From UHGV virus genome UHGV-0090450: DNA of 56,302 bases. The stretch is one strand, 5' to 3'. Positions 3,950 to 52,023 of this stretch are shown here, in pieces. Positions within the stretch are counted from its first letter, which is position 1. Each line of letters begins with the position of its first letter. The stretch is from a virus. A program made the position numbers and the translations under genes. The notes beneath the pieces are model-generated. The model had not been told where the DNA came from. It did no database searches and saw only the letters and a program-made list of their open reading frames with translations.

Positions 3950-4304
3950 ACAGTTTAACAACACACTACCGTCGCTCGCAACTGATTGCGCTTCCTGTAC
4001 CGGGTGGAAAAGCGAAGGTGGAATATTGCTATGCAGTGAATGTACCAGGTGACAGGGAAATTGTAACCCACAGCTTTGCAGAGTGGGCTGTGGGTGATTT
4101 CAACCGGCAGAAGGAGACAGTCCTTTGCGACAAGTTAACCGCTGGTTCAAAGATCACTACGGAGTGCCCGTCAGAGTCATTCGTTGGGAGCCGGAAACAC
4201 AACGGGTTATCTACCTCCGCGAAGGTTATGAGCATGAATGCTTCAGTCCGCTCGAACAGTTTCGTCGTAAATTCAGGGAAATAGAGGTCGGTCATGAGCA
4301 CTAA
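3946..4304 (+). pseudogene. hypothetical protein, apparently frameshifted (N-terminal part in frame of 3946, protein-like C-terminal part in -1 frame ending 4304)
   Basis: Frame of 3946 ORF becomes Ser-rich noise after about residue 60 while the overlapping frame from 4098 to 4304 reads [44 protein letters not shown] with no ATG. Confidence 0.35.
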
Positions 4305-5220
4305 ATTAACCGGCTATGTATGGGATGGTTGCGCTGCATCAGGCATGAAGTTATCCAGCGTGGCAATTATGGCCCGCCTGGCTGATTTCAGTAATGACGA
4401 AGGTGTGTGCTGGCCATCAATTGAAACCATTGCCCGTCAGATTGGCGCGGGGATGAGTACCGTCAGAACGGCTATCGCACGGCTGGAAGCAGAAGGCTGG
4501 TTAACGCGTAAGGCGCGTCGCCAGGGTAACCGCAATGCGTCGAATGTTTATCAGCTTAACGTTGCGAAGCTTCAGGCAGCGGCATTTTCTCAACTGTCAG
4601 ATTCTGACCCGTCAAAATCTGACGCATCAAAATCTGATGCGTCGAAATCTGGCAAAAAAGCGGGTTTTCACCCGTCAGAATCTGGCGGGGATCCGTCAGT
4701 AAAATCAAAACATGATCCGTCAGATAAAAAACCTTCTCGTCCGGACGCTTCGCAACCGGACACGCAGACGGCTGAACAGGATTTTTTAACTCGCCATCCT
4801 GATGCGGTTGTATTCAGCCCTAAAAAGCGCCAGTGGGGAACGCAGGATGATTTGACCTGCGCACAGTGGCTCTGGAAAAAAATCATCGCCCTGTACGAGC
4901 AGGCCGCCGAATGTGACGGCGAGGTGGTTCGTCCCAAAGAACCGAACTGGACAGCCTGGGCAAACGAAATTCGCCTGATGTGTGTGCAGGATGGTCGTAA
5001 TCATAAACAAATCTGCGAGATGTACAGCCGCGTCAGTCGCGATCCGTTCTGGTGCCGTAACGTGCTCAGCCCGTCGAAGCTGCGGGAAAAATGGGATGAG
5101 CTTTCCCTGCGCTTATCGCCGTCCGTCAGCACGTACACCGAAAAACGCGAAGACCCGTACTTCAAATCCAGTTACGACAACGTGGACTACAGCCAGATCC
5201 CGGCAGGATTCAGGGGGTGA
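4294..5220 (+). CDS. replication initiator (lambda O-like: N-terminal winged-helix, repeat-rich linker, C-terminal domain)
   Basis: N-terminal HTH (VRTAIARLEAEGWL), DPSKSDASKSDASKSG repeats encoded by DNA iterons, position after cro/cII-like genes. Confidence 0.7.
   Translation: MSTKLTGYVWDGCAASGMKLSSVAIMARLADFSNDEGVCWPSIETIARQIGAGMSTVRTAIARLEAEGWLTRKARRQGNRNASNVYQLNVAKLQAAAFSQLSDSDPSKSDASKSDASKSGKKAGFHPSESGGDPSVKSKHDPSDKKPSRPDASQPDTQTAEQDFLTRHPDAVVFSPKKRQWGTQDDLTCAQWLWKKIIALYEQAAECDGEVVRPKEPNWTAWANEIRLMCVQDGRNHKQICEMYSRVSRDPFWCRNVLSPSKLREKWDELSLRLSPSVSTYTEKREDPYFKSSYDNVDYSQIPAGFRG
4596..4745. repeat. iterons inside the O-like gene (probable phage origin)
   Basis: At least 6 copies of CCGTCA(A/G)AATCTG(A/G)-like units in direct orientation, as in lambda ori within O. 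Confidence 0.6.
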
Positions 5221-5711
5221 TCATGAGTCTGTTAAATGACGTTCAGAAATTCATTGAAGCCCATCCTGGGTGTACTTCCGGAGACATTGCGGATGCTTTT
5301 GCAGGTTACTCACGGCAGCGCGTTCTGCAGTCTGCAAGCAAGTTACGTCAGAGTGGGCGTGTGGCTCACCGTTGTGAAGGAGATACACGCAGACATTTCC
5401 CGCGCCTGACTGAGAGAGCGCAGGAGCCGGAACCACAACCAGTTCGTGAAACCAGACCTGTGCGCAATTTCTATGTCGGCACTAACGATCCCCGGGTGAT
5501 TTTGTGCCTGACCCGCCAGGCTGAAGAACTGGAGTCAAGGGGCTTATACCGTCGTGCTGCAACCGTGTGGATGGCGGCATTCCGTGAAAGCCACTCCCAG
5601 CCAGAACGAAACAATTTTCTGGCGCGTCGTGAGCAGTGCTTACAGAAAAGCAGCAAGCGCGCTGCATCGGGTGAAGAGTGGTATCTGTCAGGGAATTACG
5701 TGGGGGCGTAA
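5217..5711 (+). CDS. PerC-family transcriptional regulator-like protein
   Basis: Motif ELESRGLYRRAATVWMAAFRE matches the PerC signature; translationally coupled to neighbours. Confidence 0.55.
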   Translation: MIMSLLNDVQKFIEAHPGCTSGDIADAFAGYSRQRVLQSASKLRQSGRVAHRCEGDTRRHFPRLTERAQEPEPQPVRETRPVRNFYVGTNDPRVILCLTRQAEELESRGLYRRAATVWMAAFRESHSQPERNNFLARREQCLQKSSKRAASGEEWYLSGNYVGA

Positions 5712-6037
5712 TGACGACGTTAACTCAATGCCAGCAGCAGGTGCTGGATATGCTGATTTCTTATCAGAAAGAGCGTGGCTTTCCGCCAACCAATCAGGAG
5801 GTGGCAACCATGCTGGGATACCGTTCGGTGAATGCAGCGGTGGAGCATCTTCGCGCACTGGAGAAAAAAGGCCTCATCACGATAAAGCGTGGCGTGGCAC
5901 GGGGGATAACGCTTCATACCGCTGTGAAGGACGACGACAGCGAGGCGGTCGGGATTATCCGCGCACTGCTTGCCGGTGAGGAAAACGCCAGGCTGCGTGC
6001 AGCCCACTGGTTACATGAGAGGGGCCTGAAAGTATGA
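5711..6037 (+). CDS. LexA DNA-binding-domain-only protein (no S24 peptidase domain)
   Basis: LTQCQQQVLDMLISYQKERGFPPTNQEVATMLGYRSVNAAVEHLRALEKKGLITIKRGVARGITL aligns closely with the LexA N-terminal domain as recalled; ATG at 5711 overlaps upstream stop (TAATG); track ORF begins at 5678. Confidence 0.7.
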   Translation: MTTLTQCQQQVLDMLISYQKERGFPPTNQEVATMLGYRSVNAAVEHLRALEKKGLITIKRGVARGITLHTAVKDDDSEAVGIIRALLAGEENARLRAAHWLHERGLKV

Positions 6038-6423
6038 AGCTGATTCTGCCTTTTCCGCCCAGCGTGAACACGTACTGGCGACACCCCAACAAAGGGGCGT
6101 TTGCTGGTAAGAGCCTGATAAGCGCGGCGGGGCGCAAATTCCAGAGCGCGGCGTGTGCAGCAATAGTTGAGCAGTTACGTCGTCTGCCAAAACCAACGTC
6201 GGCACCTGCTTCAGTGGAGATCGTGTTGTTTCCACCGGATAACCGGATCCGCGATCTGGACAACTATAACAAGGCGCTGTTTGACGCCCTGACCCACGCG
6301 GGTGTGTGGGAGGACGACAGTCAGGTGAAAAGAATGCTGGTGGAGTGGGGGCCGGTTATCCCGGAAGGGAAGGTCGAGATCACTATCAGTAAGTACGAGA
6401 AAACGGCGGGTGCAGCCGCCTGA
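6034..6423 (+). CDS. rusA: RusA Holliday-junction resolvase
   Basis: Size and motifs (DLDNYNKALFDALTHAGVWEDDSQV) typical of RusA; nin-region position. Confidence 0.85.
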   Translation: MKLILPFPPSVNTYWRHPNKGAFAGKSLISAAGRKFQSAACAAIVEQLRRLPKPTSAPASVEIVLFPPDNRIRDLDNYNKALFDALTHAGVWEDDSQVKRMLVEWGPVIPEGKVEITISKYEKTAGAAA

Positions 6424-33005: not shown

Positions 33006-34073
33006 TTAATGAAATTTATCTCGGATGAATTGTTGCGATGGCTTTTCAATGAATATATATGACATATAGCTAATTGCCATTAATGTAAGCATGAATAAAA
33101 TGAATACCTTGGGGCTGTAAAAAAGATCGCGTCCATAGCCAATCTTGTCAGCTAAATAAACAACAATGATTTGCAAAGGAAAATGTAAAAGATAAGATGA
33201 ATAACTGATATCACCCAACCATTCAATTTTCTTCCCAAAATCGTTTCGTATTGCGCTAATTGATACAAGGAAAAAGATTATGGAGGTAAATCCGAATAAG
33301 ATAATTGAGAATATATCTGCTACTTGCAGGGTAAAGATAACTCCCCATGAGATCAATAGAAAAACACAAGCAAAAATAAAAAATAATTTTGCGCTAATAT
33401 TTTTTATGACCGCAATCGTAATTTTATAGGTCAGACCACCAATAAAGAAAGAGAATGCGCCGATCATTATGGGATTGTTAATTTTGAAAAAGTAGTACGA
33501 CAATGCAACTATTAAAATTGATATGAATGTTGTTTTTGATGTGAACTTGCATAATATAAAAAATATCATGTACATAAGTACTTCAATCGACACGGACCAT
33601 GTCGGGGCGTTGAAGGACCAACCTCGCTCAAATCCCCATGATTGAATCATCAATAAATTCAGAATGGCATGGTAAATGTCATTCATAGGATAAACAAAAA
33701 AATAATTATGACTTTTAAAGAAAATAATTTGTAATATTGCCACGACAGCAAATGTAAATATATAAAGTGGATATAATCTACTGACACGGTTAACTATAAA
33801 AGTTTTTGCTGAGGTTTTATTGCTGTGTATATTGTCAGCGTATAGATAAAAAAATATGAATCCAGAAATCATAAAAAACAATTCGACAGCATATAAACCG
33901 TAATGATAAAAAACGGAAAAAAATTCATAAAAAGGTTGGCGGTTTATGATTATGTCAGATGCAGCATTCTTTTTCATAAAAAAATGTTGCCAATGCCATA
34001 ACACAACGGAAAGTGCGGCAAATCCTCTCAGAACATCCAGGGTATATATTCTCTTCCCAAAAAAATTCGTCAC
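33006..34073 (-). CDS. acyltransferase family 3 integral membrane protein (O-antigen acetyltransferase-like)
   Basis: About 10 predicted TM helices; N-terminus LDVLRGFAALSVVLWHWQHFF; very AT-rich. Confidence 0.85.
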   Translation of the reverse strand: MTNFFGKRIYTLDVLRGFAALSVVLWHWQHFFMKKNAASDIIINRQPFYEFFSVFYHYGLYAVELFFMISGFIFFYLYADNIHSNKTSAKTFIVNRVSRLYPLYIFTFAVVAILQIIFFKSHNYFFVYPMNDIYHAILNLLMIQSWGFERGWSFNAPTWSVSIEVLMYMIFFILCKFTSKTTFISILIVALSYYFFKINNPIMIGAFSFFIGGLTYKITIAVIKNISAKLFFIFACVFLLISWGVIFTLQVADIFSIILFGFTSIIFFLVSISAIRNDFGKKIEWLGDISYSSYLLHFPLQIIVVYLADKIGYGRDLFYSPKVFILFMLTLMAISYMSYIFIEKPSQQFIRDKFH

Positions 34074-34623
34074 AACGAACCTCTTTTAATAAAGTCAAGT
34101 GATAATGAAAGATAAATATTGTAAACGAAAAAACACTGGACTGGAACATATATCTCTGCTTGTAATTTACCCAAGATAATTTTACTAACGCAGTCATAAT
34201 TCGTTCATGTATACCAGATGAAAGTACATGTTCTATGAAATAGGGTTTTGCCTGGAGTTTGAAGGTTTTTAACGATTATACCTGTTTAATCGACTCCCCA
34301 TGTTTTTTGACATTATCCACCGCACACGATACTGGATGCCAGGTAAACTGATTTGCTGGCATAAAGTCACTGAGAATTTTTTACCAACAATATCTTGCCA
34401 CATCTTTTCCCGCACAGTTTCGGCAATAGAATCAGCGGGCAGCGGTCATCAATATTCACCAGACATTGATCTGCCGCACTATCTGACCGGTGTCCTGCTG
34501 AGAATACTAATTTCTTTTTTTGCAAGTGCTGTCCAATCATGATTGGGGGGGGCCGGCGGAGTTGAAACCGCAGGTACGTTGTATGCAATAACGTGCTGCG
34601 GTTTAATCTTATCAATTGAATAC

Positions 34624-35493
<870 letters not shown>

Positions 35494-36032
35494 CTAACCC
35501 TTTGAATTTACATAGCGCAAAAAGATACCTTTCCTCATAATGTGAGCTAATTTTATGTTTCGTTTGATGATCGGATCGGTCTCGAAACCCGTAGCCACGT
35601 CGTATGCAAGAACGTGCTACGACTGGCTGGTGAACTTCCGATAGTGCGTGTATTGAATGATTTCCAACTGTTATCGATTTTGCGTATTTTTTGCATGAGA
35701 GGATTTTTACCTCCTCCCACCGATCCTCCATGGCTTTACGCCAGTGTCTCTGGTCTGCTATGTGCCAGAAGCGGAAGTTCCCACTATTATGCTCTGCATC
35801 GATACCGGGAAGGTACTTAAGTCCCCCGGTATTCACTGATATTATCCTCCAGCTACCGCAATGCCGCCCAATCTGGTATGGCTTAGCTAGCCAAGTAACT
35901 GCTGGCAGAAAGGCCTCTTCAAGCATACCATCCGGATTTACCGATGAGATTTCCCATCCAGCACGGAAATGATACTTTCTACTGACCCCAGATTTTTACT
36001 AAGACAATAAAGATACTGGATTCAATGAGGGG

Positions 36033-38597
36033 TTATTTCATAAGAGTGCGCCTTGTTTTGATCTGATCACGCCATTCTTTTAACGTGCTTATATCCGCTC
36101 GCAGCTCCTTATACTCTGGTATAGAAGCTGGCATTTCCGTCGACTGGCTGTGCTCATAACAGCTGTATTTAGTCATGAGGCTTTCAATCAATTTACAGTC
36201 TTCTGCAGTTATATCCTGTACATACGGAAGCCTTCCGTCAGTCTGGATTCCTCTTCTATGACGTATAACTACCCCGTTAAATAAATCCTCCTCGACAGAG
36301 CGCTCAATGAGTTTACGAAAATCACTGCAAACGCCCTGAGCTAGCCCACGGAAAGCTATTGCGCCATGTTCTTGTCCAGATTTGTAGGCTGAATCCAGCC
36401 TAGTCAGGAGAATGTTATTCGCTGATTTGGTATTCGCGTTCCAGACCTCCTGATCGGCAGGATGACCGGCAGCTCCATCAAATGATTCAATACATATCGA
36501 TTTATGGTGCTGCTTTTTCCATGGGTCTCCCTCTTTTCTTGCCAAATCTTCAATTACCCCGTAAAGGGAAAGTCTGTGCGTTAAAATAATCACCTGACGC
36601 GATTTAGCGAGTTCAACGAGGCGTTTAGCAACTTGCCACTCAAATTCGTGGTCCAGAGATGAAATAGGGTCATCAAAAATGAAGGGAGCAGATCCCGGCC
36701 GATCAGTGACATCGGCTAAAAATGCAGCCAGTGAGATAATCCTACGTTCTCCTTCACTCAGAACATTGTGCAACTTGTCCCGTTGCGCTCCTTTTAGCTG
36801 TAGCTGATGCAAAACTTTCGCATTTTCTGTCCTTATTTTCACAAGCTCAACCTGCAAGCCAGGAGCACCAAGAACTTTCAGCTCACGGTTGAATCTGGCG
36901 GCATAGGCTTCAGTGACAACTTTCTGAGTAATATCAGCAGATTTAGTTGATAATGCACGGGAAGCGGCAAGTGATATCCATTCATCAAATTCACTTCTTT
37001 TTTTTAAGCGTTCAACTTCGGCTCTGATAGCCTCGGCTTGACCAGATAACCACCGTCGAGCTTCGGCTTCGTTTTTATTCTGCAAAGCTTTGGCCCTGTC
37101 AAATCCTGCTGCATCTCTCTGAAACTGGTCGGCTTCTCCCTGAAGCCGGTCGCGGTAAGTACGTAAATTCGTGATAGCTTCGGTCAAATCAGCCAAAGGA
37201 ACTGCTGTCTGGGTAGCTTCATGCTCGGTGAGCGCCTGACGACTGAGGGATGCGGAACTCCATATTCCCGTTAGGTATTTATTCCATTCTTCCTGAATCG
37301 CAGCGCTTGCACAAAGGGTAGCAATTTCGGCCATTGAGGGAGGAATAGTTATCGAGCCGATTGCCTGAGCATACAGACACTCAGCTGTGGCAGCATCGCT
37401 CTCAAGACGTGATTGCACGAAAGCCTCAAGATTGTTCAGACGCTGCTGAGCTTCTGCGGATAGAGCCTGATTGCATAAAACACAACAGGCCTCATCTGTT
37501 GCCGGAAAAGCCTTGTCTGGATAGGGCGTCCTTGAATAGTCGCGAGCAGCTTCCCACATGGCACGCCATACAGGTGAGCCAATGCCCTCCAGTGAGTCAT
37601 CTTTTATTCGTTCACTATCAAGCGCAATTCTGCGCTTGCTGATGCTATCAGCACGTAACGCCCGAAGACAGTCGATATTTGACTGGCTAAAAGTCTTTGC
37701 CGTCTGCTCAAGTTGAGTGATGATCTGATTAACAGATGTTTGAACCGCAAGCTTGTTGCGGGCGTTCTCAGCCGGATCTTTAACGTTCAGACGTTCATTC
37801 AAGGCACTAAGCGCTTGCTCATCCGCCTCAGACCAGTTTGTCATCACTGCGATATTTTCGGTAGTTGCTGTACTTAGTGCACTATAGGTAGTGGCAATAT
37901 GACAACGCTGATAAACAGCAGGTAGTTCGGGAAGTTTGCTGACTAGCTGAGACTGTTCATCCCTTAGCTTATCGCGTACCAGTTTCAGGTACTGGGCCAG
38001 TTTTTCAAAAAGCCCCACCACACTCGGTATATAGGTAGCGGCACTCTCTTGGGTGAGATAATGCAGAGATTCATCCGTATCGAAGATATCAATGCCTTTC
38101 AGGGCATCGATCGGAGGGCTGTCAGCTGACCAGTCCGCTTCAGCATTGCTTTCATTCGCTTTCCATTTAATGTGGCAACTTCGCTCAGGTGGTAAGGGAT
38201 TAAAGACATTAGAGTTAAGCTGAGCTGCTCTAGGTTTTCCGGACATACGTTTGAGCACACGCGTATAGCTGGATTTACCGGACCCGTTATGGCCGTAAAT
38301 AACAGTCAGATTCCCTGAACCGAAATCGAGCGGTAAACGTGGAGCAAGGTTCTCAATACCCTTTACAGCTTCGATCCGACTTAACCTGAGTGTTCCAGAT
38401 CCCTGCTCTGCAGATGCTAGGCCTAGGAAAGTATGGTGTGTCGTTTTTGTTCGTCCATGGGGGGTCTTGAGTAAAGCAATAACCTGCTGAAGGTCATTAT
38501 CTGTCAGGTCATCCTGTTGAATGAGTCTTTCCGCTAGTTCCTGAAACCAGTCCTGCTGCTTTAACAGCCAGGCTATGATATCGGCCTTTACATCCAT
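36033..38597 (-). CDS. RloC-like ABC/SMC-type ATPase with coiled-coil insertion and CxxC zinc hook (AAA_13-like)
   Basis: Walker A VIYGHNGSGKSS, signature LSEGERRIISLAAFLA, Walker B FIFDDPISSLD, H-loop ILTHR, CVLC within the roughly 500-aa insertion; RBS AGGAGGG. Confidence 0.7.
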   Translation of the reverse strand: MDVKADIIAWLLKQQDWFQELAERLIQQDDLTDNDLQQVIALLKTPHGRTKTTHHTFLGLASAEQGSGTLRLSRIEAVKGIENLAPRLPLDFGSGNLTVIYGHNGSGKSSYTRVLKRMSGKPRAAQLNSNVFNPLPPERSCHIKWKANESNAEADWSADSPPIDALKGIDIFDTDESLHYLTQESAATYIPSVVGLFEKLAQYLKLVRDKLRDEQSQLVSKLPELPAVYQRCHIATTYSALSTATTENIAVMTNWSEADEQALSALNERLNVKDPAENARNKLAVQTSVNQIITQLEQTAKTFSQSNIDCLRALRADSISKRRIALDSERIKDDSLEGIGSPVWRAMWEAARDYSRTPYPDKAFPATDEACCVLCNQALSAEAQQRLNNLEAFVQSRLESDAATAECLYAQAIGSITIPPSMAEIATLCASAAIQEEWNKYLTGIWSSASLSRQALTEHEATQTAVPLADLTEAITNLRTYRDRLQGEADQFQRDAAGFDRAKALQNKNEAEARRWLSGQAEAIRAEVERLKKRSEFDEWISLAASRALSTKSADITQKVVTEAYAARFNRELKVLGAPGLQVELVKIRTENAKVLHQLQLKGAQRDKLHNVLSEGERRIISLAAFLADVTDRPGSAPFIFDDPISSLDHEFEWQVAKRLVELAKSRQVIILTHRLSLYGVIEDLARKEGDPWKKQHHKSICIESFDGAAGHPADQEVWNANTKSANNILLTRLDSAYKSGQEHGAIAFRGLAQGVCSDFRKLIERSVEEDLFNGVVIRHRRGIQTDGRLPYVQDITAEDCKLIESLMTKYSCYEHSQSTEMPASIPEYKELRADISTLKEWRDQIKTRRTLMK

Positions 38598-39120
38598 TAC
38601 TGCCCTCCTTCATTCATGACGATAAAGGAAGCGAAACTGAATGCGCCTCCCAGCACATTGCTACCACGCCCTAGTGTGTGGCGTTAAGAATCATCTGATA
38701 GTGCATCAGCCACTTGAGATGAGCAACACTTGATCAACAAAAATTGGCAATAGTGTATCCGTAATCCACAGTAAAATGCTCACGCTCCAGTAGATCCCGA
38801 AATGAAGTCTGCTCACTAAACGTCTGCGGGGACTTCGCTACAGGTTTGCAGACGAGGCATAAGTATCTTAACTTTTGGCGACTGGGCAGTGATATATAAA
38901 GGTGAGATTAAAATTATCCGAATGATTTCATCGCTATGATATTAGCCTTGATCAGTATCATAAAACCTAAGCCGTCCGCTGCTCGATCACAGTAACCGTG
39001 TTATTCATGGCCTGTCTGCAACCAAGCTTTCTTAGATCAGTGTGTGTTGAACAATGGGGGAACAGGTCATCATAAAGGCACTTAGGGATTTAAATTCCGA
39101 AAGTGCCTCTTATTAATTTT

Positions 39121-39657
39121 TTACTTAACAAGTTTAATTGTTATGCCTGAGTTAGGGCCAGGAGGAACGCCTAATGCTGTATCTACACCTGGGTTATTAC
39201 GTAAATCATCAAGAATTTCTTCCGGTCGGAACTTTTTCCCGATAACAGCTTGAGATTCAGGGCGTGGATTTTCTGAGTGTCTTGCTCGGTAAGCTTCAAC
39301 AAATTCAATTCCTTCTGCTATTGCTCGCGAGCTCAAGCCTCGGGCAAATAAACGATTGAATTCTCCTTCAGCTAAAGTTCGAGCGGCTGTGTGAGGAACT
39401 TTAGCCTGAATTATCTCAGTGCTATTAGGCTTTCTTCTAGGATAATGGGTGGCCAGTAATCCTCTATTTAGGATTTCTTGCTCAAGCCATGCATCATCAT
39501 GTTGAGATGCTTCTTCTAACAAAGAAGGCCACACAGTCTTACCTTGAGCAGTAAGAAAATTGCTTAAATAAAAACTGTTATTTTCTTTATCAAATTCAAT
39601 TTCTTTAAGCATAAATTTTTTGGTTGAATCATCCAAATCAATATAATTTAAAGACAT
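39121..39657 (-). CDS. hypothetical protein (178 aa)
   Basis: ATG at 39657 (MSLNYIDLDD) preceded by GAGGG; track ORF starts at 39711; palindromic operator-like sequence upstream. Confidence 0.5.
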   Translation of the reverse strand: MSLNYIDLDDSTKKFMLKEIEFDKENNSFYLSNFLTAQGKTVWPSLLEEASQHDDAWLEQEILNRGLLATHYPRRKPNSTEIIQAKVPHTAARTLAEGEFNRLFARGLSSRAIAEGIEFVEAYRARHSENPRPESQAVIGKKFRPEEILDDLRNNPGVDTALGVPPGPNSGITIKLVK

Positions 39658-40042
39658 AAAACCCTCTGCTATATGTAGAAAGAAAACTCCAACCGCACTA
39701 TTAAATTGCAAACCATCTTAAGCAATCATATCTTTTGATGCAAAAGGAAAATTTACCTTTTGCAAAAAGGTTTTTCTTATACCATGAAGTCAGCCCTAGT
39801 ATGGTAACGCACTCACTTGGGCCCTATTGATTAAGACAGCGATAGGTAAGTCATATTTTTATAAGTTATAAGAGCAACTGCGAACTTCCGCTCTTCGCTC
39901 ATAACAGACATAAACTTCAGTTATGGCATAAAGGTATGCATGCTGGGTGGGGAAAGTATGAAGGAAAAGAAGACTGCTGCGCCGTTTGTCGTCACGTTTA
40001 TCTTCATTGGCTATGCAAGTCGTAATACAAGGTGGGACAAAA

Positions 40043-40157: not shown

Positions 40158-40203
40158 ATTCGTAATGCGAAGGTCGTAGGTTCGACTCCTATTATCGGCA
40201 CCA
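40158..40203 (+). other. 3' fragment of tRNA-Thr (anticodon loop to CCA), att core
   Basis: ATTCGTAATGCGAAGGTCGTAGGTTCGACTCCTATTATCGGCACCA matches the 3' 46 nt of E. coli tRNA-Thr(CGU) as recalled; no matching 5' acceptor strand upstream. Confidence 0.7.
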
Positions 40204-40369: not shown

Positions 40370-41584
40370 GTGAAACTCAATGCCCGTCAAATAGACACTG
40401 CCAAGCCAAAAGAGAAGGCTTACAAGCTGGCTGATGGTGGTGGTCTGTATCTCTTGGTAAAACCTAGTGGAGGAAAATATTGGCGCTTCAAGTATCGTGT
40501 AGCTGGTAAAGAGAAGCTGTTAGCACTAGGTGTGTATCCTGAAGTTACCTTGGCTGATGCTCGTGCAAAACGTGAAGAAGCTAAAAGGGGTATCGCTGGG
40601 GGTATCGATCCGATGGAAGCGAAACGAGAGGAAAAGATTGCCCGGGAAACGCAGTTAAACAACACCTTCAAAGATATTGCCCTTGAGTGGCACAGCAGCA
40701 AATTAAAAAAATGGTCTGCTGGTTATGCTTCAGACATCCTCGAAGCCTTCAACAAAGATGTGTTCCCTTACATTGGCAAAAAACCAATCGCCGAAATCAA
40801 ACCACTTGAACTGCTGAATGTGCTGCGGCGCATCGAGGGGCGCGGTGCTACCGAAAAAGCCAAAAAAGTGAGGCAGCGATGTGGGGAAGTTTTCCGCTAT
40901 GCAATTGTCACTGGACGTGCTGAGTATAACCCTGCACCGGATCTCACCAGCGCGATGCAAGGTCATGAATCTAATCATTATCCTTTCCTCACAGCCAAAG
41001 AATTACCTGATTTTTTCAAGGCATTGTCCAGTTACTCAGGAAGTGCATTGGTTGTTATGGCGGCTCGTTTACTGATTATCACCGGTTTGCGGACTGGCGA
41101 ACTGCGCGGTGCATTATGGGATGAAATCGATCTCAACAAGGCTATCTGGGAGATACCTGCTTCACGGATGAAAATGCGTCGCCCTCATGTAGTGCCTTTG
41201 TCTGAGCAGGCTCTTTCGCTTATTGGGCAGATTAAAGAACTAACTGGCAATTATCCGCTTATGTTTCCCGGCCGTAATGATCCAAGGAAAACAATGAGCG
41301 AGGCTAGCATAAACCAAGTATTTAAACGCATCGGCTATAACGGAAAGGTTACTGGTCATGGCTTCCGGCACACTATGAGCACCATTTTGCATGAGCAGGG
41401 CTATAACACCGCGTGGATAGAGACACAGCTTGCGCACGTCGATAAAAACTCAATTCGTGGCACATACAACCATGCGCAATATCTGGATGGGCGGCGGGAA
41501 ATGCTTCAGTGGTACGCTGATTATATGGATTCGCTCGAGCATGGCGGAAATGTGGTGCATGGTGAGTTCGGAAAATGCGGGTGA
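40370..41584 (+). CDS. int: tyrosine integrase (P4 type, N-terminal arm-binding domain)
   Basis: N-terminus KLADGGGLYLLVKPSGGKYWRFKYR, C-terminal catalytic region (HGFRHT, LAH...RGTYNH); GTG start after GGAGG; adjacent to tRNA fragment. Confidence 0.9.
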   Translation: MKLNARQIDTAKPKEKAYKLADGGGLYLLVKPSGGKYWRFKYRVAGKEKLLALGVYPEVTLADARAKREEAKRGIAGGIDPMEAKREEKIARETQLNNTFKDIALEWHSSKLKKWSAGYASDILEAFNKDVFPYIGKKPIAEIKPLELLNVLRRIEGRGATEKAKKVRQRCGEVFRYAIVTGRAEYNPAPDLTSAMQGHESNHYPFLTAKELPDFFKALSSYSGSALVVMAARLLIITGLRTGELRGALWDEIDLNKAIWEIPASRMKMRRPHVVPLSEQALSLIGQIKELTGNYPLMFPGRNDPRKTMSEASINQVFKRIGYNGKVTGHGFRHTMSTILHEQGYNTAWIETQLAHVDKNSIRGTYNHAQYLDGRREMLQWYADYMDSLEHGGNVVHGEFGKCG

Positions 41585-42737: not shown

Positions 42738-42935
42738 ATGTCAAATACGCTTATTCGTTTAACAGAAGTTCAGCGTAGAACTGGATATAGCAAGGCATGG
42801 ATTTATCGCCTTATGGGGCAAGGTAAATTTCCTGCATCAGTTAAAATTGGCTCGCGAGCTATTGCTTTCGTTGAGAGTGAAATTGACGAGTGGATTAATC
42901 AGCGTATTGCGGAATCACGCGGAACAGCTACCTGA
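42738..42935 (+). CDS. alpA: AlpA-family transcriptional regulator / excisionase-like
   Basis: 65 aa, LTEVQRRTGYSKAWIYRLMGQGKFP HTH. Confidence 0.85.
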   Translation: MSNTLIRLTEVQRRTGYSKAWIYRLMGQGKFPASVKIGSRAIAFVESEIDEWINQRIAESRGTAT

Positions 42936-43012: not shown

Positions 43013-43420
43013 ATGAAATTTCCAAAAACGCCCGTACAGGGGCGGGGCTTCGTTCGGCCTGAAAACCAGAATCTGCAAAATTTCGGCGAAATTATCCCGA
43101 TTATTTCCGGCGTTATTGGCGGGAGTGAAACCACTATTGTTAGCGCCAGAGCGTTATATAAGGCGTTAGGTGTAGGGCGCGTTTTCCGTTCGTGGATCAA
43201 GGGGCGCATTGAAGAATACGGGTTCACGGAAGGCGTGGATTATGAGGTTGTTGAATATTTGAGCCGACCCGATCCGGTGAGCGCAAAATCTCGCCAGCAA
43301 ACCGCTCTTGAGTACATCATCACAGTGAACATGGCGAAAGAACTGGCGATGGTCGAACGTACCGAACAGGGCCGCGCCGTTCGCCAGTACTTTATCAAAT
43401 GCGAGGAGGAGCTACATTAA
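43013..43420 (+). CDS. antirepressor-like protein (ORF6N/AntA-type domain)
   Basis: FRSWIKGRIEEYGFTEGVDY and ITVNMAKELAMVERTEQGRAVRQYFIKCEE match ORF6N/AntA pattern. Confidence 0.65.
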   Translation: MKFPKTPVQGRGFVRPENQNLQNFGEIIPIISGVIGGSETTIVSARALYKALGVGRVFRSWIKGRIEEYGFTEGVDYEVVEYLSRPDPVSAKSRQQTALEYIITVNMAKELAMVERTEQGRAVRQYFIKCEEELH

Positions 43421-43424
43421 GCCA

Positions 43425-43742
43425 ATGTGTGCCGCGCTGGAGGCGTACCGGGCTGAACTGGGTAAAAACACACTCCAGCACCACTACACCACGGAAGCGA
43501 ACATGCTGGCGCGTATCGTGCTGGGTGGCATGACTGCAAAACAGTGGGCACTGGCGAACGGCATTACAGGCGAACCACGCGACCACATGAGCACGTTGCA
43601 GCTTGAGCACCTTTCTTACCTTGAGCAGAGCAATATCACGCTGATTGAGTTAGGCCAGGACTACCACCAGCGGAAGGCTGAATTAATTCGTCTTTCGCAG
43701 CGTTGGTTAGCCCGTCGCATGGAGGAAAACAGCCATGTGTAA
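43425..43742 (+). CDS. hypothetical protein (105 aa)
   Basis: ORF immediately downstream of antirepressor-like gene. Confidence 0.4.
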   Translation: MCAALEAYRAELGKNTLQHHYTTEANMLARIVLGGMTAKQWALANGITGEPRDHMSTLQLEHLSYLEQSNITLIELGQDYHQRKAELIRLSQRWLARRMEENSHV

Positions 43743-44414
43743 CGCTCTGACCGTTACAAAAAGAGAAAGCGCCCCGTTGCCGGAGCGCCTTTGTGAACGA
43801 ATAGCCTACTGCGCCATATTGCTTACTGTCTACGAGGCAGATTATAGCGTTGTGGTCGCACAGAGTGAAGGCGCTGATCACCGTTACTACAGCACGCCAG
43901 AAATGCAGAATATTTTGCTGCAAAATGTCGTTGGTCACACTGTCCGGAAAGCAAAAAATTTTGCTGGTGGCGCGACTGATGCGATTTTGTCAGGTCGCCA
44001 GGTGCTGATCAATCTGATGTCTAATTTCGTTCTGGATAAAACAAAGGCGACCGCAGAGGGCCACCAGTGGGAAAGCTACACACTTGAACACATCGCCAAC
44101 AATGCCAGATTTGCGGCTGGTGGGCAATGTGATCAGTGTGCTGGCTTGCTGGTGGGCTATTCCTGCTCTTTAACATTGCCATGCCGCGATGTTTTCCAGG
44201 TATGCGACCCCATTTTTGTGCGCCTGTACTCTTTAAGGAATTTCTCAAGGATAAACGCACAGGGCGCGAATCTGTCTGACTCATATTCGTACGCTATCTT
44301 TCTGCGCTGTCTTTTCCGTGCCGGTGATGGTGTATTGGTCGATTCTTTGTTGGTCATTCTGTGTACCTGTAAAGCAATGCGCCGGAGTTCCTCACACCAC
44401 GGCGATGATAGTTA

Positions 44415-44720
44415 TTATTCTGATTCTTTGGCCTTGCGGCGCTGGAGTTCTTCACGTGCGACGGTGACGAGCTGCCCGATCTCCTCGACAGCTTTGACTC
44501 CGATTTTTTCTACCTGCGCCAGTGCATTGAGCGAAGAAACCAGGGGATTTTCTCCGCTTCCTTCTGCCTGGCGGCGGGCGATCTCACCACGCATGGCGGT
44601 TACTATGAATCCGGCGTTGCTTTCGCCGTCCAGTTTTACGGATTCCATGCCTTCAAAAGCATCATGTGGGATACGAATTGAAATCTGTTTTGATTTGTCG
44701 TTGATAGTGTTTTTTGCCAT
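44415..44720 (-). CDS. hypothetical small protein (about 101 aa), possible regulator
   Basis: ATG (MAKNTIND) preceded by AGGAGA; track ORF extends to 44759. Confidence 0.45.
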   Translation of the reverse strand: MAKNTINDKSKQISIRIPHDAFEGMESVKLDGESNAGFIVTAMRGEIARRQAEGSGENPLVSSLNALAQVEKIGVKAVEEIGQLVTVAREELQRRKAKESE

Positions 44721-44907
44721 GTGCATTCTCCTAAACAAAAGATGTGATTCAGTATACACAAAAAAGAATCACAAAAAATACTTGACCTGTGATTCAGTTA
44801 AATTTAATTTAAATCACACCTCAGTAAGAGGATATAAACGACAACGCCCCGAACTGTTTGCGGCAGTAGCGGGGCGTCTAACCAAACCGTTAAATGAGGT
44901 AACGATT

Positions 44908-45273
44908 ATGGCTGGGGCACAGCATACCCAAACTCACCCTAAATTTATATACACCTTCCTGGCGGTGCACCGTGATTGCATGGCTGACGGTAAAAACACT
45001 GTTCATGTAGCCGCCGATACGCTGGTTGATGCCTGCGAGATGCTCAATGACATGGGCTATATCTCGGCAACATGGAAAGGGCGCGAAGAAAACACGTTGT
45101 TTATTCAGAAATGCGAAAACAATTTTATCTGGCGTTTTATCGCCCTGAGTACGGCACAACCGCGCGTGATTCACATCGAGGCCACCAGCGAACAGGAAGC
45201 ACGCCAGCAATCTCCTGATGGCTGCGTGATGGTATTCGCTGCCCGTATTCGCCAGGAGGTGGAGCATGTGTAA
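44908..45273 (+). CDS. hypothetical protein (about 121 aa)
   Basis: ATG at 44908 (MAGAQHTQTHPKF) preceded by GAGGT; protein-like composition unlike the upstream part of track ORF 43735-45273. Confidence 0.45.
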   Translation: MAGAQHTQTHPKFIYTFLAVHRDCMADGKNTVHVAADTLVDACEMLNDMGYISATWKGREENTLFIQKCENNFIWRFIALSTAQPRVIHIEATSEQEARQQSPDGCVMVFAARIRQEVEHV

Positions 45274-46271: not shown

Positions 46272-46562
46272 ATGAAAAGGAAAAATTCTGGCTTTACTGC
46301 CAGCGGTCTCTCTCGGCCTGAAATCAGACACGGAGATATTTACCGCGACACCAGACGTGGGGGACGAGTGGTTATTCGTCACGTTACGCCAGGCAATATC
46401 ACCTACCGCCGTGAGGCTTACGAATATGACTGCGTAATGCCGCGCCGTCAGTTTGAGCGTGATTTTATTCTGGTGGAAAACAAACAACAGGCAGTGGCGA
46501 GACGTGCAGCCACGAATATTAAAAAAATCCGGGCAATGTTGGTTGCGGGAGGTAAGAAGTGA
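46272..46562 (+). CDS. hypothetical small basic protein
   Basis: ORF overlapping primase start. Confidence 0.45.
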   Translation: MKRKNSGFTASGLSRPEIRHGDIYRDTRRGGRVVIRHVTPGNITYRREAYEYDCVMPRRQFERDFILVENKQQAVARRAATNIKKIRAMLVAGGKK

Positions 46563-48364
46563 AAAACGCACCGAATTTAAAATATCAGCCGAAGGATAAA
46601 TTCACCGAGGTAATCATTTTTGCCGGGACGGATGCTTACGCCCATGCTCAACACTGGATTGAAAGCGAAGGACGAAAACACGGCGATAACGTGCCTCCTG
46701 TTTACCTGGGGCCAAAGCAACTGGCAGACCTGGCGAATATCCGCATTGTCGACGATGAACGCCGCTTTGCGCGTGTCTATCTCGCGGGGGAGATAGAGCC
46801 AATCCAGATCAATGCTATTGCTGAAAAGCTGGCGCTGGCTGGTGTACAGGACGCGAAATTATACAAAGGTATCACCGACCGGGAGCCGGAAAACTGGCGC
46901 GACTACCTGCAACGGATCCGCGAACAGGCAGAGAGTGGGGAAGTTTCAGCGATGAAATTAGCCACAAAAAATATTGACCTATCCAGGCCAGCACTAAATC
47001 AGATGGGAGCCAGCCAGAGAGGGGAAGTGTTACTTGAATATTATGGAAGAGCACTGGCTATAAATGATGATTCTGATGTAGTTCACCATTACAACGGAAT
47101 TGTCTGGGTGCCTGTATCTGATAAGGAACTCCAGCGGTCTATGGCGAAGATTTTTATTGATGCTGGAATCAGTTATTCGCAAAACGCCATTAAATTTGCC
47201 GTAGACACAATGAAATTGAGCCTGCCTGTTATGGGCGGGGCAGACAGGAATCTTATTGGATTCAGTAACGGGGTATTTGATACCCGGACGGGAAATTTTC
47301 GGGAGCATAACAAAAATGACTGGTTGTTAAATGCCAGTGAATTACCGTTCAGCCCACCAGCAGAGGGGGAAACGCTGGCAACACATGCGCCGAATTTCTG
47401 GAAGTGGCTGCGTCGTTCGGTGGCAGATAATGATCGTAAAGCTGATCGCGTACTGGCGGCATTATTCATGGTGCTGGCGAACCGGTACGACTGGCAGTTA
47501 TTCCTTGAGGTAACAGGCCCAGGCGGAAGCGGTAAAAGTGTGATGGCTGAGATTTGTACCATGCTGGCGGGTAAGGCCAACACAGTATCGGCAAGCATGA
47601 AGGCTCTGGAAGACGCAAGGGAACGCGCGTTAGTAGTTGGCTTTTCGCTGATTATCATGCCGGATATGACTCGCTACGCTGGCGATGGTGCAGGAATTAA
47701 GGCAATTACTGGCGGCGACAAGGTGGCAATTGATCCGAAACATAAAGCCCCCTACTCCACACGTATTCCGGCAGTAGTGCTTGCGGTAAACAATAACGCC
47801 ATGTCATTCAGTGACCGAAGCGGGGGGATCTCGCGTCGTAGGGTGATATTTAATTTCTCTGAGGTCGTACCGGAGAACGAACGCGATCCCATGCTGGCGG
47901 AAAAGATAGAAGGCGAACTGGCGGTAGTGATTCGCCATTTGCTAACACGATTTACCGACCAGGACGAAGCTAAAAGACTACTTTATGAGCAGCAAAAATC
48001 AGAAGAAGCGCTGTTGATAAAGCGCGAAGGTGATTCACTGGTGGACTTTTGCGGCTATCTGATGTCGTTGGTTAAATGTGAAGGAATGATGGTGGGCAAT
48101 GCGGAAATAGTGCCATTTAGCCCGAGGCGATACCTGTATCATGCTTATTTAGCCTATATGTCAGCGCATGGCCTGGGAAAACCAGTATCACTGACACGCT
48201 TTGGTACTGATATGCCAGGAGCTATGGCGGAATACGGAAAGGAGTATAAGCGGGCTAAATGCACTAAAGGCCCGGATAAAGGGCGAGTGATAACAAATGT
48301 TCTGTTAGATGATGATGCTGATGGCTGGTTGCCAGCAGCTACAGGGATTAACGACAGAACATAA
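46559..48364 (+). CDS. primase / replication protein (P4 alpha-like)
   Basis: 601 aa; Walker A-like GPGGSGKS in C-terminal half; followed by iteron origin. Confidence 0.85.
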   Translation: MKNAPNLKYQPKDKFTEVIIFAGTDAYAHAQHWIESEGRKHGDNVPPVYLGPKQLADLANIRIVDDERRFARVYLAGEIEPIQINAIAEKLALAGVQDAKLYKGITDREPENWRDYLQRIREQAESGEVSAMKLATKNIDLSRPALNQMGASQRGEVLLEYYGRALAINDDSDVVHHYNGIVWVPVSDKELQRSMAKIFIDAGISYSQNAIKFAVDTMKLSLPVMGGADRNLIGFSNGVFDTRTGNFREHNKNDWLLNASELPFSPPAEGETLATHAPNFWKWLRRSVADNDRKADRVLAALFMVLANRYDWQLFLEVTGPGGSGKSVMAEICTMLAGKANTVSASMKALEDARERALVVGFSLIIMPDMTRYAGDGAGIKAITGGDKVAIDPKHKAPYSTRIPAVVLAVNNNAMSFSDRSGGISRRRVIFNFSEVVPENERDPMLAEKIEGELAVVIRHLLTRFTDQDEAKRLLYEQQKSEEALLIKREGDSLVDFCGYLMSLVKCEGMMVGNAEIVPFSPRRYLYHAYLAYMSAHGLGKPVSLTRFGTDMPGAMAEYGKEYKRAKCTKGPDKGRVITNVLLDDDADGWLPAATGINDRT

Positions 48365-48735: not shown

Positions 48736-49278
48736 ATGGGGCAAAGCATGACTAAGCTGACCATTAACAGAAAACCAAAAGGTATTTACGGCACGCCGCA
48801 GAAAACGACGCAGGCGGCACAGGAGCAGGATAAAACCACATCGGCGCATAAAGTGATGCCCGGTAACCAGAAAGCGCAGCAGAAGCCTACAGGGGCGACA
48901 CCGTGGCGGCATATGACCAAACGCCAGCGCAAAAACCGCAGGCGCGTTAACCGCCTCACTGAGTTGTGGCCTGACTTATTCAGCCGGGAAGCACTGAAGC
49001 CGCTTAAGGTGGGGATATTCGACGACCTGATGCAGGATCTCGCCGTCAGGGGGCTGGCATTCGGGCCAGGGGCATTGCGTGCGACGCTGGCATCTTATGC
49101 GCAGTGTCCGCGCTATTACCGCGCCTTAATGGCTGGTGGGGTACGCTACGACCTGAAAGGCCAGCCGTGCGGCGAGGTGACACCACAGGAACAACAGGAC
49201 GCAGAAACGCGGCTGGTGGCGCTGAATGAGAAGCGCAAACGCCAGCGCCGGGCAGCAAAGGAGACAATAGGCGCATGA
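48736..49278 (+). CDS. FinO/ProQ-like RNA-binding protein
   Basis: LKPLKVGIFDDL and CPRYYRALMAGGVRYDLKGQPCGEVT match the FinO/ProQ domain pattern as recalled. Confidence 0.6.
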   Translation: MGQSMTKLTINRKPKGIYGTPQKTTQAAQEQDKTTSAHKVMPGNQKAQQKPTGATPWRHMTKRQRKNRRRVNRLTELWPDLFSREALKPLKVGIFDDLMQDLAVRGLAFGPGALRATLASYAQCPRYYRALMAGGVRYDLKGQPCGEVTPQEQQDAETRLVALNEKRKRQRRAAKETIGA

Positions 49279-49562
49279 TTCACGACAGCAAAGCGGAAGC
49301 ACTGGAAGCGCGTGGTCTGTACCGGAGAGCGGCGGCGCGGTGGGCTGAGGTCATCATGCTGGCGAATGATGACAAGGCACGGGAACAGGCGGCAAAACGT
49401 CGCGCGGAATGTATCCACAAGGCAGCACGCCCACCAGCAAGGCAGGATAATTTCGGGGAGATGCGCGAAACCATCAGCCGGGCACATGCCGGGATGGGAT
49501 TACATCAGCCCAATGGTGAGGCATTCAGGAAATACCAAAAAAAGAACAATTGTAGTCAGTAA
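49275..49562 (+). CDS. PerC-family regulator-like protein
   Basis: LEARGLYRRAAARW motif; paralogous to 5217-5711. Confidence 0.55.
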   Translation: MIHDSKAEALEARGLYRRAAARWAEVIMLANDDKAREQAAKRRAECIHKAARPPARQDNFGEMRETISRAHAGMGLHQPNGEAFRKYQKKNNCSQ

Positions 49563-49696: not shown

Positions 49697-50839
49697 ATGA
49701 ATAAAACTTTAATTGCAACATTAGTCGGTATAGTAATGTTAACCGGATGTGGGCCAGAAGAGTTAACTCCAGAACAGAAACAGGAAGTAGCTGCTCTTAA
49801 AGCTGAACTGTCGCAAACGGAAGGTGAAATATCAGCAGCTAAGGAAGTTGACCAGCAGTTTTCTGGTGGGTTGATAAAAAATCTGACAACAGCAAGACTG
49901 GAAATATTAGGAACTAATAAAGCGCTTTTGGAACAGCGTATTAATGCTATTGAATCAGGTGCCAAAATTGATGTTGTTGTATCTGGAGTAAAACCTGATC
50001 CTGAGCTTGCGGCTTCAATTAAAACTGAAATTGACAGCTTAGATGCAAAAATCAACGAAGCCAAAGCTGATGCTCGTCAGTATAGTGGTGGTCTGATAAA
50101 GGTACTAAAATTATCTACTGTTGCCACTGAAGAGCAGACCATGGCAATGTTGCAGCAAAAGTACCTCACAGCCAAGTATGGCCTCGCTGAAGTTAAGCTG
50201 GCATCAGTACAAGCTAATGACGCAAAAAACAGTACTGAAACGGAAGTAACAGCCAAAAATTCCCAAGAGCAACTTCCTTTACTCCCGCCAGCGGATGGTC
50301 CGTTTGGCTTAGAAGCCGGTCTTACACAGAAAAACATCGAAGATATGATCGGTGCTAAGCTCAAGCCACTACCAGACAGTGTGAATCTGTATACTTCTGA
50401 TAAATTACCGAAGCAAAACGCAGATTTTGAAATGTATGGTTTGCTGATCTCCCCGAAAGCTGGTTTATGTCAAATACGGGCTTTAGGAAAAAATATTGAT
50501 ACTGATAGCTATGGATTGGCTCTTAAATCCAAGTTTGAAGAATTGAGTAATTCTTTAAGTTCTCTGTATGGAAAGGCTGATACTACAGACTTTTTGCTGG
50601 CTGGTTCAATTTGGAAAGATCCTCAGGACTGGATGAGGGGGCTAAACAAAAAAGAACGCTTCTTATCTGCCACATGGAAGGGAACAAAAGAAATACCATT
50701 AAAAAACAATATTGATACTATATCTATTGAGGCCAGAGCGAACAATTCCACTCAGGGATATGTCTATCTGCAGTACTCATTTACAAATGACGAAATTTGT
50801 CAGGCAGAAATTGAAGGGGCGAAAAAAAGTTCCCTTTAA
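49697..50839 (+). CDS. lipoprotein with internal duplication (380 aa)
   Basis: Signal/lipobox LTGC; repeated QFSGGLIKNL / QYSGGLIKVL segments. Confidence 0.6.
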   Translation: MNKTLIATLVGIVMLTGCGPEELTPEQKQEVAALKAELSQTEGEISAAKEVDQQFSGGLIKNLTTARLEILGTNKALLEQRINAIESGAKIDVVVSGVKPDPELAASIKTEIDSLDAKINEAKADARQYSGGLIKVLKLSTVATEEQTMAMLQQKYLTAKYGLAEVKLASVQANDAKNSTETEVTAKNSQEQLPLLPPADGPFGLEAGLTQKNIEDMIGAKLKPLPDSVNLYTSDKLPKQNADFEMYGLLISPKAGLCQIRALGKNIDTDSYGLALKSKFEELSNSLSSLYGKADTTDFLLAGSIWKDPQDWMRGLNKKERFLSATWKGTKEIPLKNNIDTISIEARANNSTQGYVYLQYSFTNDEICQAEIEGAKKSSL

Positions 50840-50850
50840 ACAATCCGTGC

Positions 50851-50880
50851 AAAGCCCCTTAGTAAGGGGCTTTTATATAT
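50851..50880 (+). terminator. rho-independent terminator (AAAGCCCCTT-AGTA-AGGGGCTTT + T/A-rich)
   Basis: Perfect stem after lipoprotein stop. Confidence 0.55.
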
Positions 50881-50903
50881 TAATGTTCAACGTGGGGGAT
50901 TAG

Positions 50904-51227
50904 ATGAAAGATAATCTAGCAAAACTAATTGAAAATACTTTAAAAGATATTCTATTAGCTAATGCTGCTCTAACATTCATTTTTGCAATACCAATGGCTA
51001 TTATCAGTAGGCATGGGATGGGCATCACAATCTGGTTTATAACTGTGCTCATTGCACCTGCTCTGTGTGCAGTAGGTGCATGGCTTGTATCTCGAACATC
51101 CGGCCATGCTGAGGAGTTCTTTCATCGTCGGTGGGCTAAGCGAATTTATGTTTTTTATACTCTTGCGGCTGCCGAGTTTTTGCTTGTGTACTCAATCGCG
51201 CAAATAATGAAAAATCTGATGAAATAA
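50904..51227 (+). CDS. small membrane protein (about 3 TM segments)
   Basis: Hydrophobic ORF. Confidence 0.5.
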   Translation: MKDNLAKLIENTLKDILLANAALTFIFAIPMAIISRHGMGITIWFITVLIAPALCAVGAWLVSRTSGHAEEFFHRRWAKRIYVFYTLAAAEFLLVYSIAQIMKNLMK

Positions 51228-51505
51228 TTAACAAGTTATTATCATGGAGCTTGTGGCTGTTAACCTGCAGTGAGGCGACAATCGTGTATTTATAAAAACT
51301 TCCCCTTTTCACTCCCCGCTGCTTCTTCTGCTATTGCCTTTATGTTTGCATGCACCAACATCTGCCATACCTTTGCAGAAAAATCAGAGCATTCAGTGCC
51401 GAAGGTTGGTTTATTGATGCTTTTCGTTTCATTTATTGCAATTGTCTCTGGTATCATTTCAATTTGTGCAATAATTGCAATTATTGTCATTCAGAAGGGA
51501 TCATC

Positions 51506-51673
51506 ATGAAAAATCACGGAGTAAAGCCAGTTTTACTTTCCCGGAGGCAGATCGAAGCCCTGCAACGCATCCAGGACGAAGAGCGTCAGAAATCTGTGCT
51601 TGGTGTGGCACCGTCGATTCATGTTATCGCTCGGCAACTGATGGATAAGGCACTTAAAGAGGTGAGACTGTGA
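51506..51673 (+). CDS. hypothetical small protein (55 aa)
   Basis: ATG MKNHGVKP inside track ORF 51350-51673; stop overlaps next start. Confidence 0.35.
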   Translation: MKNHGVKPVLLSRRQIEALQRIQDEERQKSVLGVAPSIHVIARQLMDKALKEVRL

Positions 51674-51942: not shown

Positions 51943-51948
51943 ATCAGT

Positions 51949-51975: not shown

Positions 51976-52023
51976 ATACCCACAACGCATTCCCTTTCCG
52001 CATGAAATTATTTTTTATCGTAT

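Follow-up and report, generated by a model that had tools for sequence, protein, structure and literature searches.

Whether two PerC-family genes carried by neighbouring mobile elements work together, or came to lie close to each other by insertion at the same site, is the question raised by a viral genome sequence of 56,302 nucleotides (UHGV-0090450), the whole of which is referred to here as the window. Two open reading frames (ORFs) on its plus strand, at 5217–5711 and 49275–49562, encode proteins of 164 and 95 amino acids, respectively, and lie exactly where a first reading of the letters, made without database searches, had placed them. That reading had seen in them a PerC-like regulator of a prophage and a paralogue in the adjacent satellite, which would suggest regulatory cross-talk or the activation of host genes. 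The interpretation put forward here, which can be held with good confidence, is that these are two independent and already catalogued PerC-family genes on two different mobile elements, inserted in tandem at the tRNA gene thrW, with a mode of action as proposed below. PerC-family proteins have an influence on loci for virulence, biofilm and motility in pathogenic strains of E. coli, and the role of yfdN, the very widespread first of the two genes, is a modest question. As a discovery the finding is ordinary, and its useful outcomes are negative or clarifying ones, namely that the pair is a by-product, that YfdN is modelled as a two-domain protein and that the ProQ/FinO–PerC cassette of the island is mobile.

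The PerC core of the two proteins

Translated in six frames, the window contains the motif GLYRRAA or E-x-RGLYRRAA at two sites only, 5532–5561 and 49305–49334, each within one of the two ORFs, which bears out the claim that both carry E-x-RGLYRRAA-x-W. The broader PerC motif, AE-LE-x-G-(L/F)-Y-R-R-A-A-x-W followed downstream by R-R-x-x-C, is present in both proteins and forms invariant columns in both family alignments. The residues that are invariant in the short PerC proteins are E8, E11, G14, Y16, R17, R18, A19, R22 and C46, to which a second alignment adds L10 and A20, and those of the YfdN family are P17, L105, R113, A114, R138 and C141. The search against the Pfam PerC profile (PF06069), which the sequence-only reading had named as the check on its family assignment, gave scores above the curated gathering threshold of 22.6 bits for both proteins. 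The 95-residue protein scores 109.1 bits (E=1.3e-31) and aligns to positions 1–89 of the 90 in the model, and the 164-residue protein scores 36.3 bits (E=6.7e-9), with residues 100–151 aligned to model positions 5–56. The PHROG 'transcriptional activator' families phrog_1324 and phrog_994 were also matched, and a sequence search of PDB chains with both proteins gave no match at E≤10. As judged from these profiles, both proteins are PerC-family regulators, each of which is already annotated and widespread.

A direct BLASTP comparison aligns the two proteins at 38% identity over 47 amino acids (E=2e-9), and a profile–profile comparison of the YfdN and short-PerC families with HHalign gives a probability of 98.9% (E=3.3e-17) over 67 columns. 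By these alignments the two are true but distant homologues, with a homology that is confined to the PerC core of about 50–65 amino acids. The single-domain format of about 90 amino acids, in which the full model is matched, is found in the 95-residue protein and not in YfdN, with its partial match and its predicted extra N-terminal winged helix.

The 495-nucleotide ORF at 5217–5711 matches, at 100% nucleotide identity, loci annotated in RefSeq as 'yfdN: PerC family transcriptional regulator', and its product shares 98% amino acid identity with a 'CPS-53 (KpLE1) prophage protein' and 95% with orf40 of phage SfV, of which it is an orthologue. Of 5426 complete E. coli genomes, 2674 carry related copies of yfdN, and tblastn retrieved homologues of YfdN from 57 records of phages, among them SfV (orf40), SfIV, mEp460 and Stx2c phages. 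The gene has already been termed 'the K12 unique PerC homologue' (PMC5931665), and its appearances in the literature are incidental hits in screens only (PMC2853380, PMC5320621). Its functional start is probably the ATG at 5223 rather than the codon at 5217, since an AGGGGG Shine-Dalgarno sequence lies 5 nucleotides upstream and the homologues begin with MSL.

The AlphaFold model of YfdN (mean pLDDT 77) is made up of a winged helix-turn-helix (wHTH), a linker and a three-helix PerC core. The predicted winged helix, with the order H-H-H-beta-beta, spans residues 2–62 (nucleotides 5220–5402), with helices at 2–15, 21–27 and 33–46 and strands at 49–54 and 57–62, and its pLDDT of about 80–86 comes from a model built on a shallow multiple sequence alignment. 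Residues 63–91 form a disordered linker in the model, and the PerC core occupies residues 92–145 (nucleotides 5490–5651), with helices at 92–107, 111–124 and 128–145 at a pLDDT of 90–95. Foldseek superimposes the N-terminal domain on BlaI, SmtB/ArsR, MarR and PerR/Fur with an rmsd of 1.5–2.5 Å over about 60 amino acids, at weak E values of 2.5e-3 to 0.1; weak profile matches to phrog_1687 (MarR) and BilQ were also obtained, and Pfam gave no HTH match for the N-terminus. Among 1.84 billion cluster representatives, 101 matched YfdN, about 25 of them as full-length homologues with both domains, down to 25% identity. The architecture is modular, since PHROGs contains families of the whole protein as well as families of the N-terminal and of the C-terminal domain on its own. 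As modelled, YfdN is a protein of distinct two-domain architecture and not a plain PerC, and, given that it matches only the first 56 of the 90 model positions, it may also be unlike PerC in its behaviour.

The 95-residue protein has a counterpart of 100% identity in RefSeq, annotated as 'PerC family transcriptional regulator'. Its model contains helices at residues 5–13, 16–29 and 33–51 (pLDDT about 90), which match the three of the YfdN core, and then a weaker fourth helix. When this model was compared with the PDB using Foldseek, nothing was found below E=2.8, with scattered TPR-like helical hairpins as the only hits. With regard to its profile match, it is a canonical short PerC/Pch protein.

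Operon context and possible modes of action

In the left element, yfdN is part of a translationally coupled run of genes for an O-like replication initiator, YfdN, a LexA DNA-binding-domain protein, the RusA resolvase, KilA-N and DUF968 proteins and the Q antiterminator. The stop codon of the initiator gene (4294–5220; phrog_391 'replication initiation O-like', 449 bits; Pfam HTH_36) overlaps the start of yfdN (GTGA), that of yfdN overlaps the start of the LexA-domain gene (5711–6037; Pfam LexA_DNA_bind, 68 bits; RefSeq annotation) in an ATGA, and the RusA gene (6034–6423; Pfam RusA, 56 bits) is the next of this early operon. The initiator, yfdN, LexA-domain and RusA genes, like the features of the island given with coordinates below, lie on the plus strand. 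Promoter scans around yfdN and the island PerC gene gave promoter-like counts not above those of shuffled sequence, and of the terminator-like sites around the two genes, most (8 of 11 in one scan, 2 of 2 in the other) lie on the other strand. This outcome fits genes located inside longer operons, without adding positive information.

By analogy with characterised relatives, both are most likely small helical proteins that modulate complexes of nucleoid proteins or activators and are expressed together with the early operons of their elements. The phage yfdN would be expressed when the early operon is switched on by SOS or induction, and the island PerC upon the AlpA-driven induction of the island. 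Each protein would then modulate transcription, either through the remodelling of H-NS-containing silencing complexes or through ANR-like anti-activation, and the targets could comprise the AT-rich DNA of the element itself as well as host loci gained by horizontal transfer (LEE, csgD/curli, flagella). The predicted winged helix of YfdN presumably confers a sequence-specific DNA targeting that is absent from the short PerC proteins. Among the precedents, Pch activates LEE1 only by relief of the silencing exerted by H-NS, StpA, Hha and YdgT, with a reduced binding of H-NS both in vivo and in vitro (PMC4764244). PchE raises flagellar expression (PMC7369912), and the group 2 and group 3 Pch proteins do not activate ler (PMC5931665, PMC6265319).

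A different possibility is that one or both proteins are ANR-type (Aar-like) anti-activators or repressors, which bind AraC-family activators and H-NS, rather than activators of the PerC type. This would agree with the behaviour of EcCIMP1_025, the PerC of a phage-inducible chromosomal island (PICI), which gave ANR matches, a similarity noted by its authors, and silences LEE1 in C. rodentium (PMC11773190), and with the repression of csgD and curli upon PchE overexpression (PMC6265319). The NCBIfam profile ANR_neg_reg (NF033650) does match the YfdN core (E=9.7e-5), but at 22.1 bits against a curated cut-off of 32, which leaves YfdN below the family threshold, and the 95-residue protein has no match at E≤0.01. 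Both proteins exceed the PerC threshold instead, and an ANR-type action of one or both seems rather unlikely. Returning to the modulation of nucleoid-protein or activator complexes, the direction of regulation by YfdN or by the 95-residue PerC is not predictable, since PerC and PchABC activate LEE1 and PchE and EcCIMP1_025 repress it or have no effect. The 'host gene activation' of the first reading is plausible by analogy only; the closest characterised relatives of the island PerC do not activate LEE.

A bolder idea, to which little probability can be given, is that YfdN-type proteins act as phage-encoded targeted anti-silencers, in which the winged helix would bring the PerC core to specific phage or host DNA sites and displace H-NS, while the PICI PerC would compete or cooperate on the same complexes when both are induced. 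Since their cores are homologous, YfdN and the PICI PerC could meet on the same H-NS complexes, and, if the idea were true, it would imply a real, if non-specific, cross-talk between helper, satellite and host.

It is very improbable that YfdN is mainly an accessory of the replication module, placed in the slot of lambda P or a DnaC-type loader, and a transcription regulator by name only. In all phages and prophages examined, the gene comes immediately after the O-like gene and overlaps it, its homologue adjoins the replication gene in the 57 tblastn records wherever neighbours are annotated, and no separate helicase-loader gene is evident from O to RusA. However, DnaD-like helicase-loader PHROGs are among the matches of the O-like protein itself, and the YfdN core is homologous to regulators. 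Moreover, YfdN is not tied to one initiator, as seen in two relatives in which the flanking genes are 85–92% identical and YfdN just 46% or 66%: the YfdN of 46% identity lies beside an initiator at 72%, and that of 66% beside an initiator at 27%. With these identities, a co-variation of YfdN and initiator like that of lambda O and P was rejected.

The prophage, the island and the thrW site

The left element has 95–97% nucleotide identity to SfV and vB_EcoM-689R6 across 56–77% of the first 25 kb, and on this similarity it is an SfV-like prophage. At 40158–40203 lies a copy of the 3' 46 nucleotides of the tRNA-Thr gene thrW, recognised by alignment with the intact thrW of strains 537-20 and MP1. 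It is unique in the window and serves both as the right attachment (att) site of the prophage and as the left att site of the island, whose genes follow in the order integrase, AlpA, a frameshifted AntA antirepressor, an Icd-like remnant, DUF4222, primase, ProQ/FinO and PerC. The tyrosine integrase of the P4/CP4-57 type (40370–41584; NCBIfam PRK09692, 308 bits) is 97% identical to that of EcCIMP1, the AlpA-family regulator (42738–42935) scores 69 bits against Pfam Phage_AlpA, and the P4-family primase/helicase (46559–48364) scores 96 bits against TIGR01613 (primase_Cterm) and 525 bits against phrog_864 (DNA primase). With an integrase, an AlpA and a primase in one direction at a tRNA att site, the island has a gene set characteristic of Gram-negative PICIs; from its gene content it appears PICI-like, and its status as a satellite is plausible. 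The terms 'prophage' and 'adjacent satellite' had been fair descriptions of an SfV-like prophage and of an int–AlpA–primase island that starts at the thrW att copy.

The P4-like parts of the island are the integrase, AlpA, the Icd-like remnant and the alpha-type primase only, and no Pfam or PHROG match to Psu, Sid or Delta, the capsid-size and transactivation genes of P4, was found among the island ORFs scanned. Similarly, the ORFs scanned at 49697–56302, 3' of the primase, gave no Pfam, PHROG or PADLOC match, and no packaging or capsid-redirection module was recognised there; in this the island agrees with the class called 'Type C' in the work on EcCIMP1 (PMC11773190). The island runs on beyond the end of the window, and a search of strain 537-20, whose island is identical, found no right-hand att copy of the kind that EcCIMP1 possesses.

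The gene for a ProQ/FinO-domain RNA-binding protein (48736–49278, or from 48748 with the RefSeq start; Pfam ProQ, 82.6 bits; RefSeq annotation of the identical island) follows the P4-family primase, and its stop codon overlaps the start of the island PerC gene (ATGA). Further downstream lies a conserved gene for a protein of 380 amino acids (49697–50839), recognised by synteny and without a Pfam, PHROG or PADLOC match, whose N-terminus resembles a lipoprotein signal (VMLTGC, a lipobox read from the translation). This gene is found downstream of ProQ–PerC in nine places, and in another place a 401-amino-acid gene is present instead. The exact 95-residue PerC was looked up in 10 distinct places in public assemblies, four of them at thrW and six at another chromosomal site, and the islands at the latter carry another integrase (409 amino acids) and a DUF927 primase. 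Since the exact PerC is found in islands that differ in integrase, primase and site, the ProQ/FinO–PerC cassette is a module exchanged among PICI-like islands with different integrases and primases.

The adjacency of YfdN and the island PerC is a by-product of the tandem insertion of phage and island at thrW, because both elements share this att site. Strain 537-20 has the identical island immediately beside thrW, without the phage, and the homology to the window begins exactly at the att core in 10 of the best 12 island matches. None of the complete genomes searched has this phage arm joined to this island; only one of them matches 80% or more of the junction query, and it carries a different, EcCIMP1-like island there. 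An SfV-like phage arm was found upstream of the exact island PerC in 0 of the 10 places mentioned above. The lineage of each gene occurs without the other, and free phages, SfV and mEp460 among them, also carry yfdN. Furthermore, the co-residence of yfdN with anything is to be expected about half of the time, because it is present in about half of the complete E. coli genomes.

What stands of the original proposal is that PerC regulators are shared between a phage and a satellite-like island; that they make up a meaningful regulator pair does not agree with their 38% identity over 47 amino acids, their differing architectures and the ten places without adjacency. Cross-talk between helper and satellite is unsupported, the homology being confined to the core, the lineages independent and the adjacency explained by thrW. 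A circuit in which the phage protein switches on the island, or in which both proteins act in a coordinated way on shared targets, must be deemed most improbable: the elements are physically adjacent, the homologous cores could compete for one host partner and PICIs depend on helper-phage signals, with an excisionase cross-talk described for EcCIMP1, yet the two proteins are this dissimilar, chance co-residence is expected, the exact island PerC has been seen alone at thrW and at a different chromosomal site, and EcCIMP1, the published analogue, has its helper present in only 2 of 21 strains (PMC11773190).

Comparison with known systems

PerC homologues in lambdoid and SfV-like phages and in PICIs have already been published, and both genes of the window are already named in RefSeq. 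The PerC1–3 groups were reportedly defined by Porter et al. in 2005. The 164-residue protein is the same gene as K-12 YfdN (CPS-53/KpLE1) and SfV orf40, located at the same position after the replication gene. In SfV a dam gene lies downstream of orf40, whereas here the LexA-domain gene is downstream of yfdN, and nothing else of substance differs. The ANR (Aar) family resembles these regulators in that its members are small, helical and directed at H-NS and activators, and its profile shows a weak similarity to the YfdN core; however, the score lies below the family threshold and the 95-residue protein lacks an ANR match.

EPEC PerC, encoded on the pMAR2/EAF plasmid and the founder of PF06069, aligns with the 95-residue protein over its full length (43% identity, 87 amino acids, E=1e-25), and the two have in common an AE-LE-(K/R)G-(L/F)YRRAA-RW motif and a later RR..C motif. 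YfdN aligns with EPEC PerC over 46 amino acids only, at 37% identity. The genetic settings differ, as EPEC PerC belongs to the perABC operon together with the AraC-type PerA, and the gene for the 95-residue PerC follows a ProQ/FinO gene within a chromosomal island. The PchABC proteins (group 1) are represented by a 104-residue protein with 44% identity to the 95-residue PerC, but their genes are found after the lysis cassette of lambdoid phages and not in the early operon.

The island PerC is closer to O157 PchE (group 3; 51% identity), which occupies the same slot in OI-51/Sp7 (EcCIEDL933), the island described by Tree et al. (PMC3378721). The slot common to both islands is int–AlpA–Icd–DUF4222–primase–small nucleic-acid-binding protein–PerC, with an SSB gene in OI-51 at the position of ProQ/FinO, and OI-51 has its own capsid/terminase module, which is lacking here. 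With regard to EcCIMP1, an experimentally verified PICI (PMC11773190), the primases are unrelated, a DUF2824/ejection-protein module is present only in EcCIMP1 and ProQ/FinO only in the island described here. Despite these differences, EcCIMP1 occupies the same thrW site next to proA with the nearly identical integrase noted above, and both islands share the organisation int–AlpA–AntA–DUF4222–primase followed further on by PerC, EcCIMP1_025 being 48% identical to the 95-residue protein.

The ProQ/FinO-PerC cassette

The ProQ/FinO-PerC pair (48736-49562), in which the gene of a FinO-domain RNA chaperone is coupled to perC, and the genes that come after it form a conserved cassette, which is found both in the window and at ten distinct places (L012-L021) that encode the exact island PerC protein. 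The slot directly 3' of perC is occupied in the window by a 380-aa ORF (49697-50839, + strand), and a gene of this size fills it in nine of the ten places examined, with one of 401 aa at L012. This gene is followed in the cassette by one of about 107 aa (100 aa at L012) and one of 90 aa, both present at all ten places, while a 55-aa gene is found in nine of them and is absent from L013. Searches of the 380-aa ORF against Pfam, PHROG and PADLOC returned no match; as read from the translation, its N-terminus (MNKTLIATLVGIVMLTGC) resembles a lipoprotein-type signal with a lipobox.

With regard to the islands that carry the cassette at these ten places, they encode two different integrases, of 404 and 409 aa, and two different primases, one of the P4/D5_N type and the other with a DUF927 domain. 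They also occupy two chromosomal sites, namely thrW and a locus flanked by LysR/peptidase-M20 and smr/GGDEF/CorA genes.

YfdN and the prophage right arm

YfdN, the PerC-like protein of the prophage (5217-5711, + strand), is only 46% or 66% identical to its relatives in two related prophages (L007:4001-4486 and L010:4001-4522), whereas the genes that flank yfdN in these prophages (CP76/YmfL, RusA and DUF968) are 85-92% identical. YfdN thus changes far more rapidly than its neighbours, by evolution or recombination, and such a rate would fit a specificity determinant. Furthermore, the PerC core of YfdN (5490-5651) matches the NCBIfam model of ANR, the AraC negative regulator family that includes Aar, with an E-value of 9.7e-5 and a score of 22.1 bits, below the model cut-off of 32 bits. 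The same link to ANR has been seen independently for the PerC of one PICI (PMC11773190), and the PerC and ANR proteins may belong to one superfamily.

In the right arm of this SfV-like prophage, the stretch from the tail-fibre genes to the att copy (33006-39711, - strand) is a cargo and defence islet. It encodes an Acyl_transf_3 acyltransferase (33006-34073), a PD-T4-3 GIY-YIG defence protein (34624-35448; PADLOC, 464 bits), an AAA_13 ATPase that is a PDC-S06 candidate defence protein (36033-38597; PADLOC, 1059 bits) and a 196-aa product with no assigned function (39121-39711), all on the - strand. In other genomes, SIR2 or IS elements are found at the islet position.

Other island ORFs and the right end

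The AntA/AntB antirepressor of the island lies in two pieces (43013-43420 and 43425-43742), and a frameshift is annotated for it in the identical island of strain 537-20. Matches of the 512-aa ORF (43735-45273) to Icd-like/repressor PHROGs are confined to its last ~50 aa, and the opposite strand carries a YlcI/YnfO-family gene (44415-44720), so that this ORF is unlikely to be a genuine gene. A 532-aa ORF with a weak Pfam TPD-motif match (54654-56252, + strand) is uninterrupted in the window, which ends at 56302, and in one other genome (L016); its counterpart in the otherwise near-identical island of 537-20 is annotated as two CDSs of 123 and 329 aa.

The identical island of 537-20 terminates at a truncated perR (LysR) gene adjoining paoD, and a search over 19 kb downstream in that island did not turn up a further copy of the thrW att core. 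EcCIMP1, a verified PICI at thrW, has a recognisable right att copy. The right end of the present island may have decayed or become anchored.
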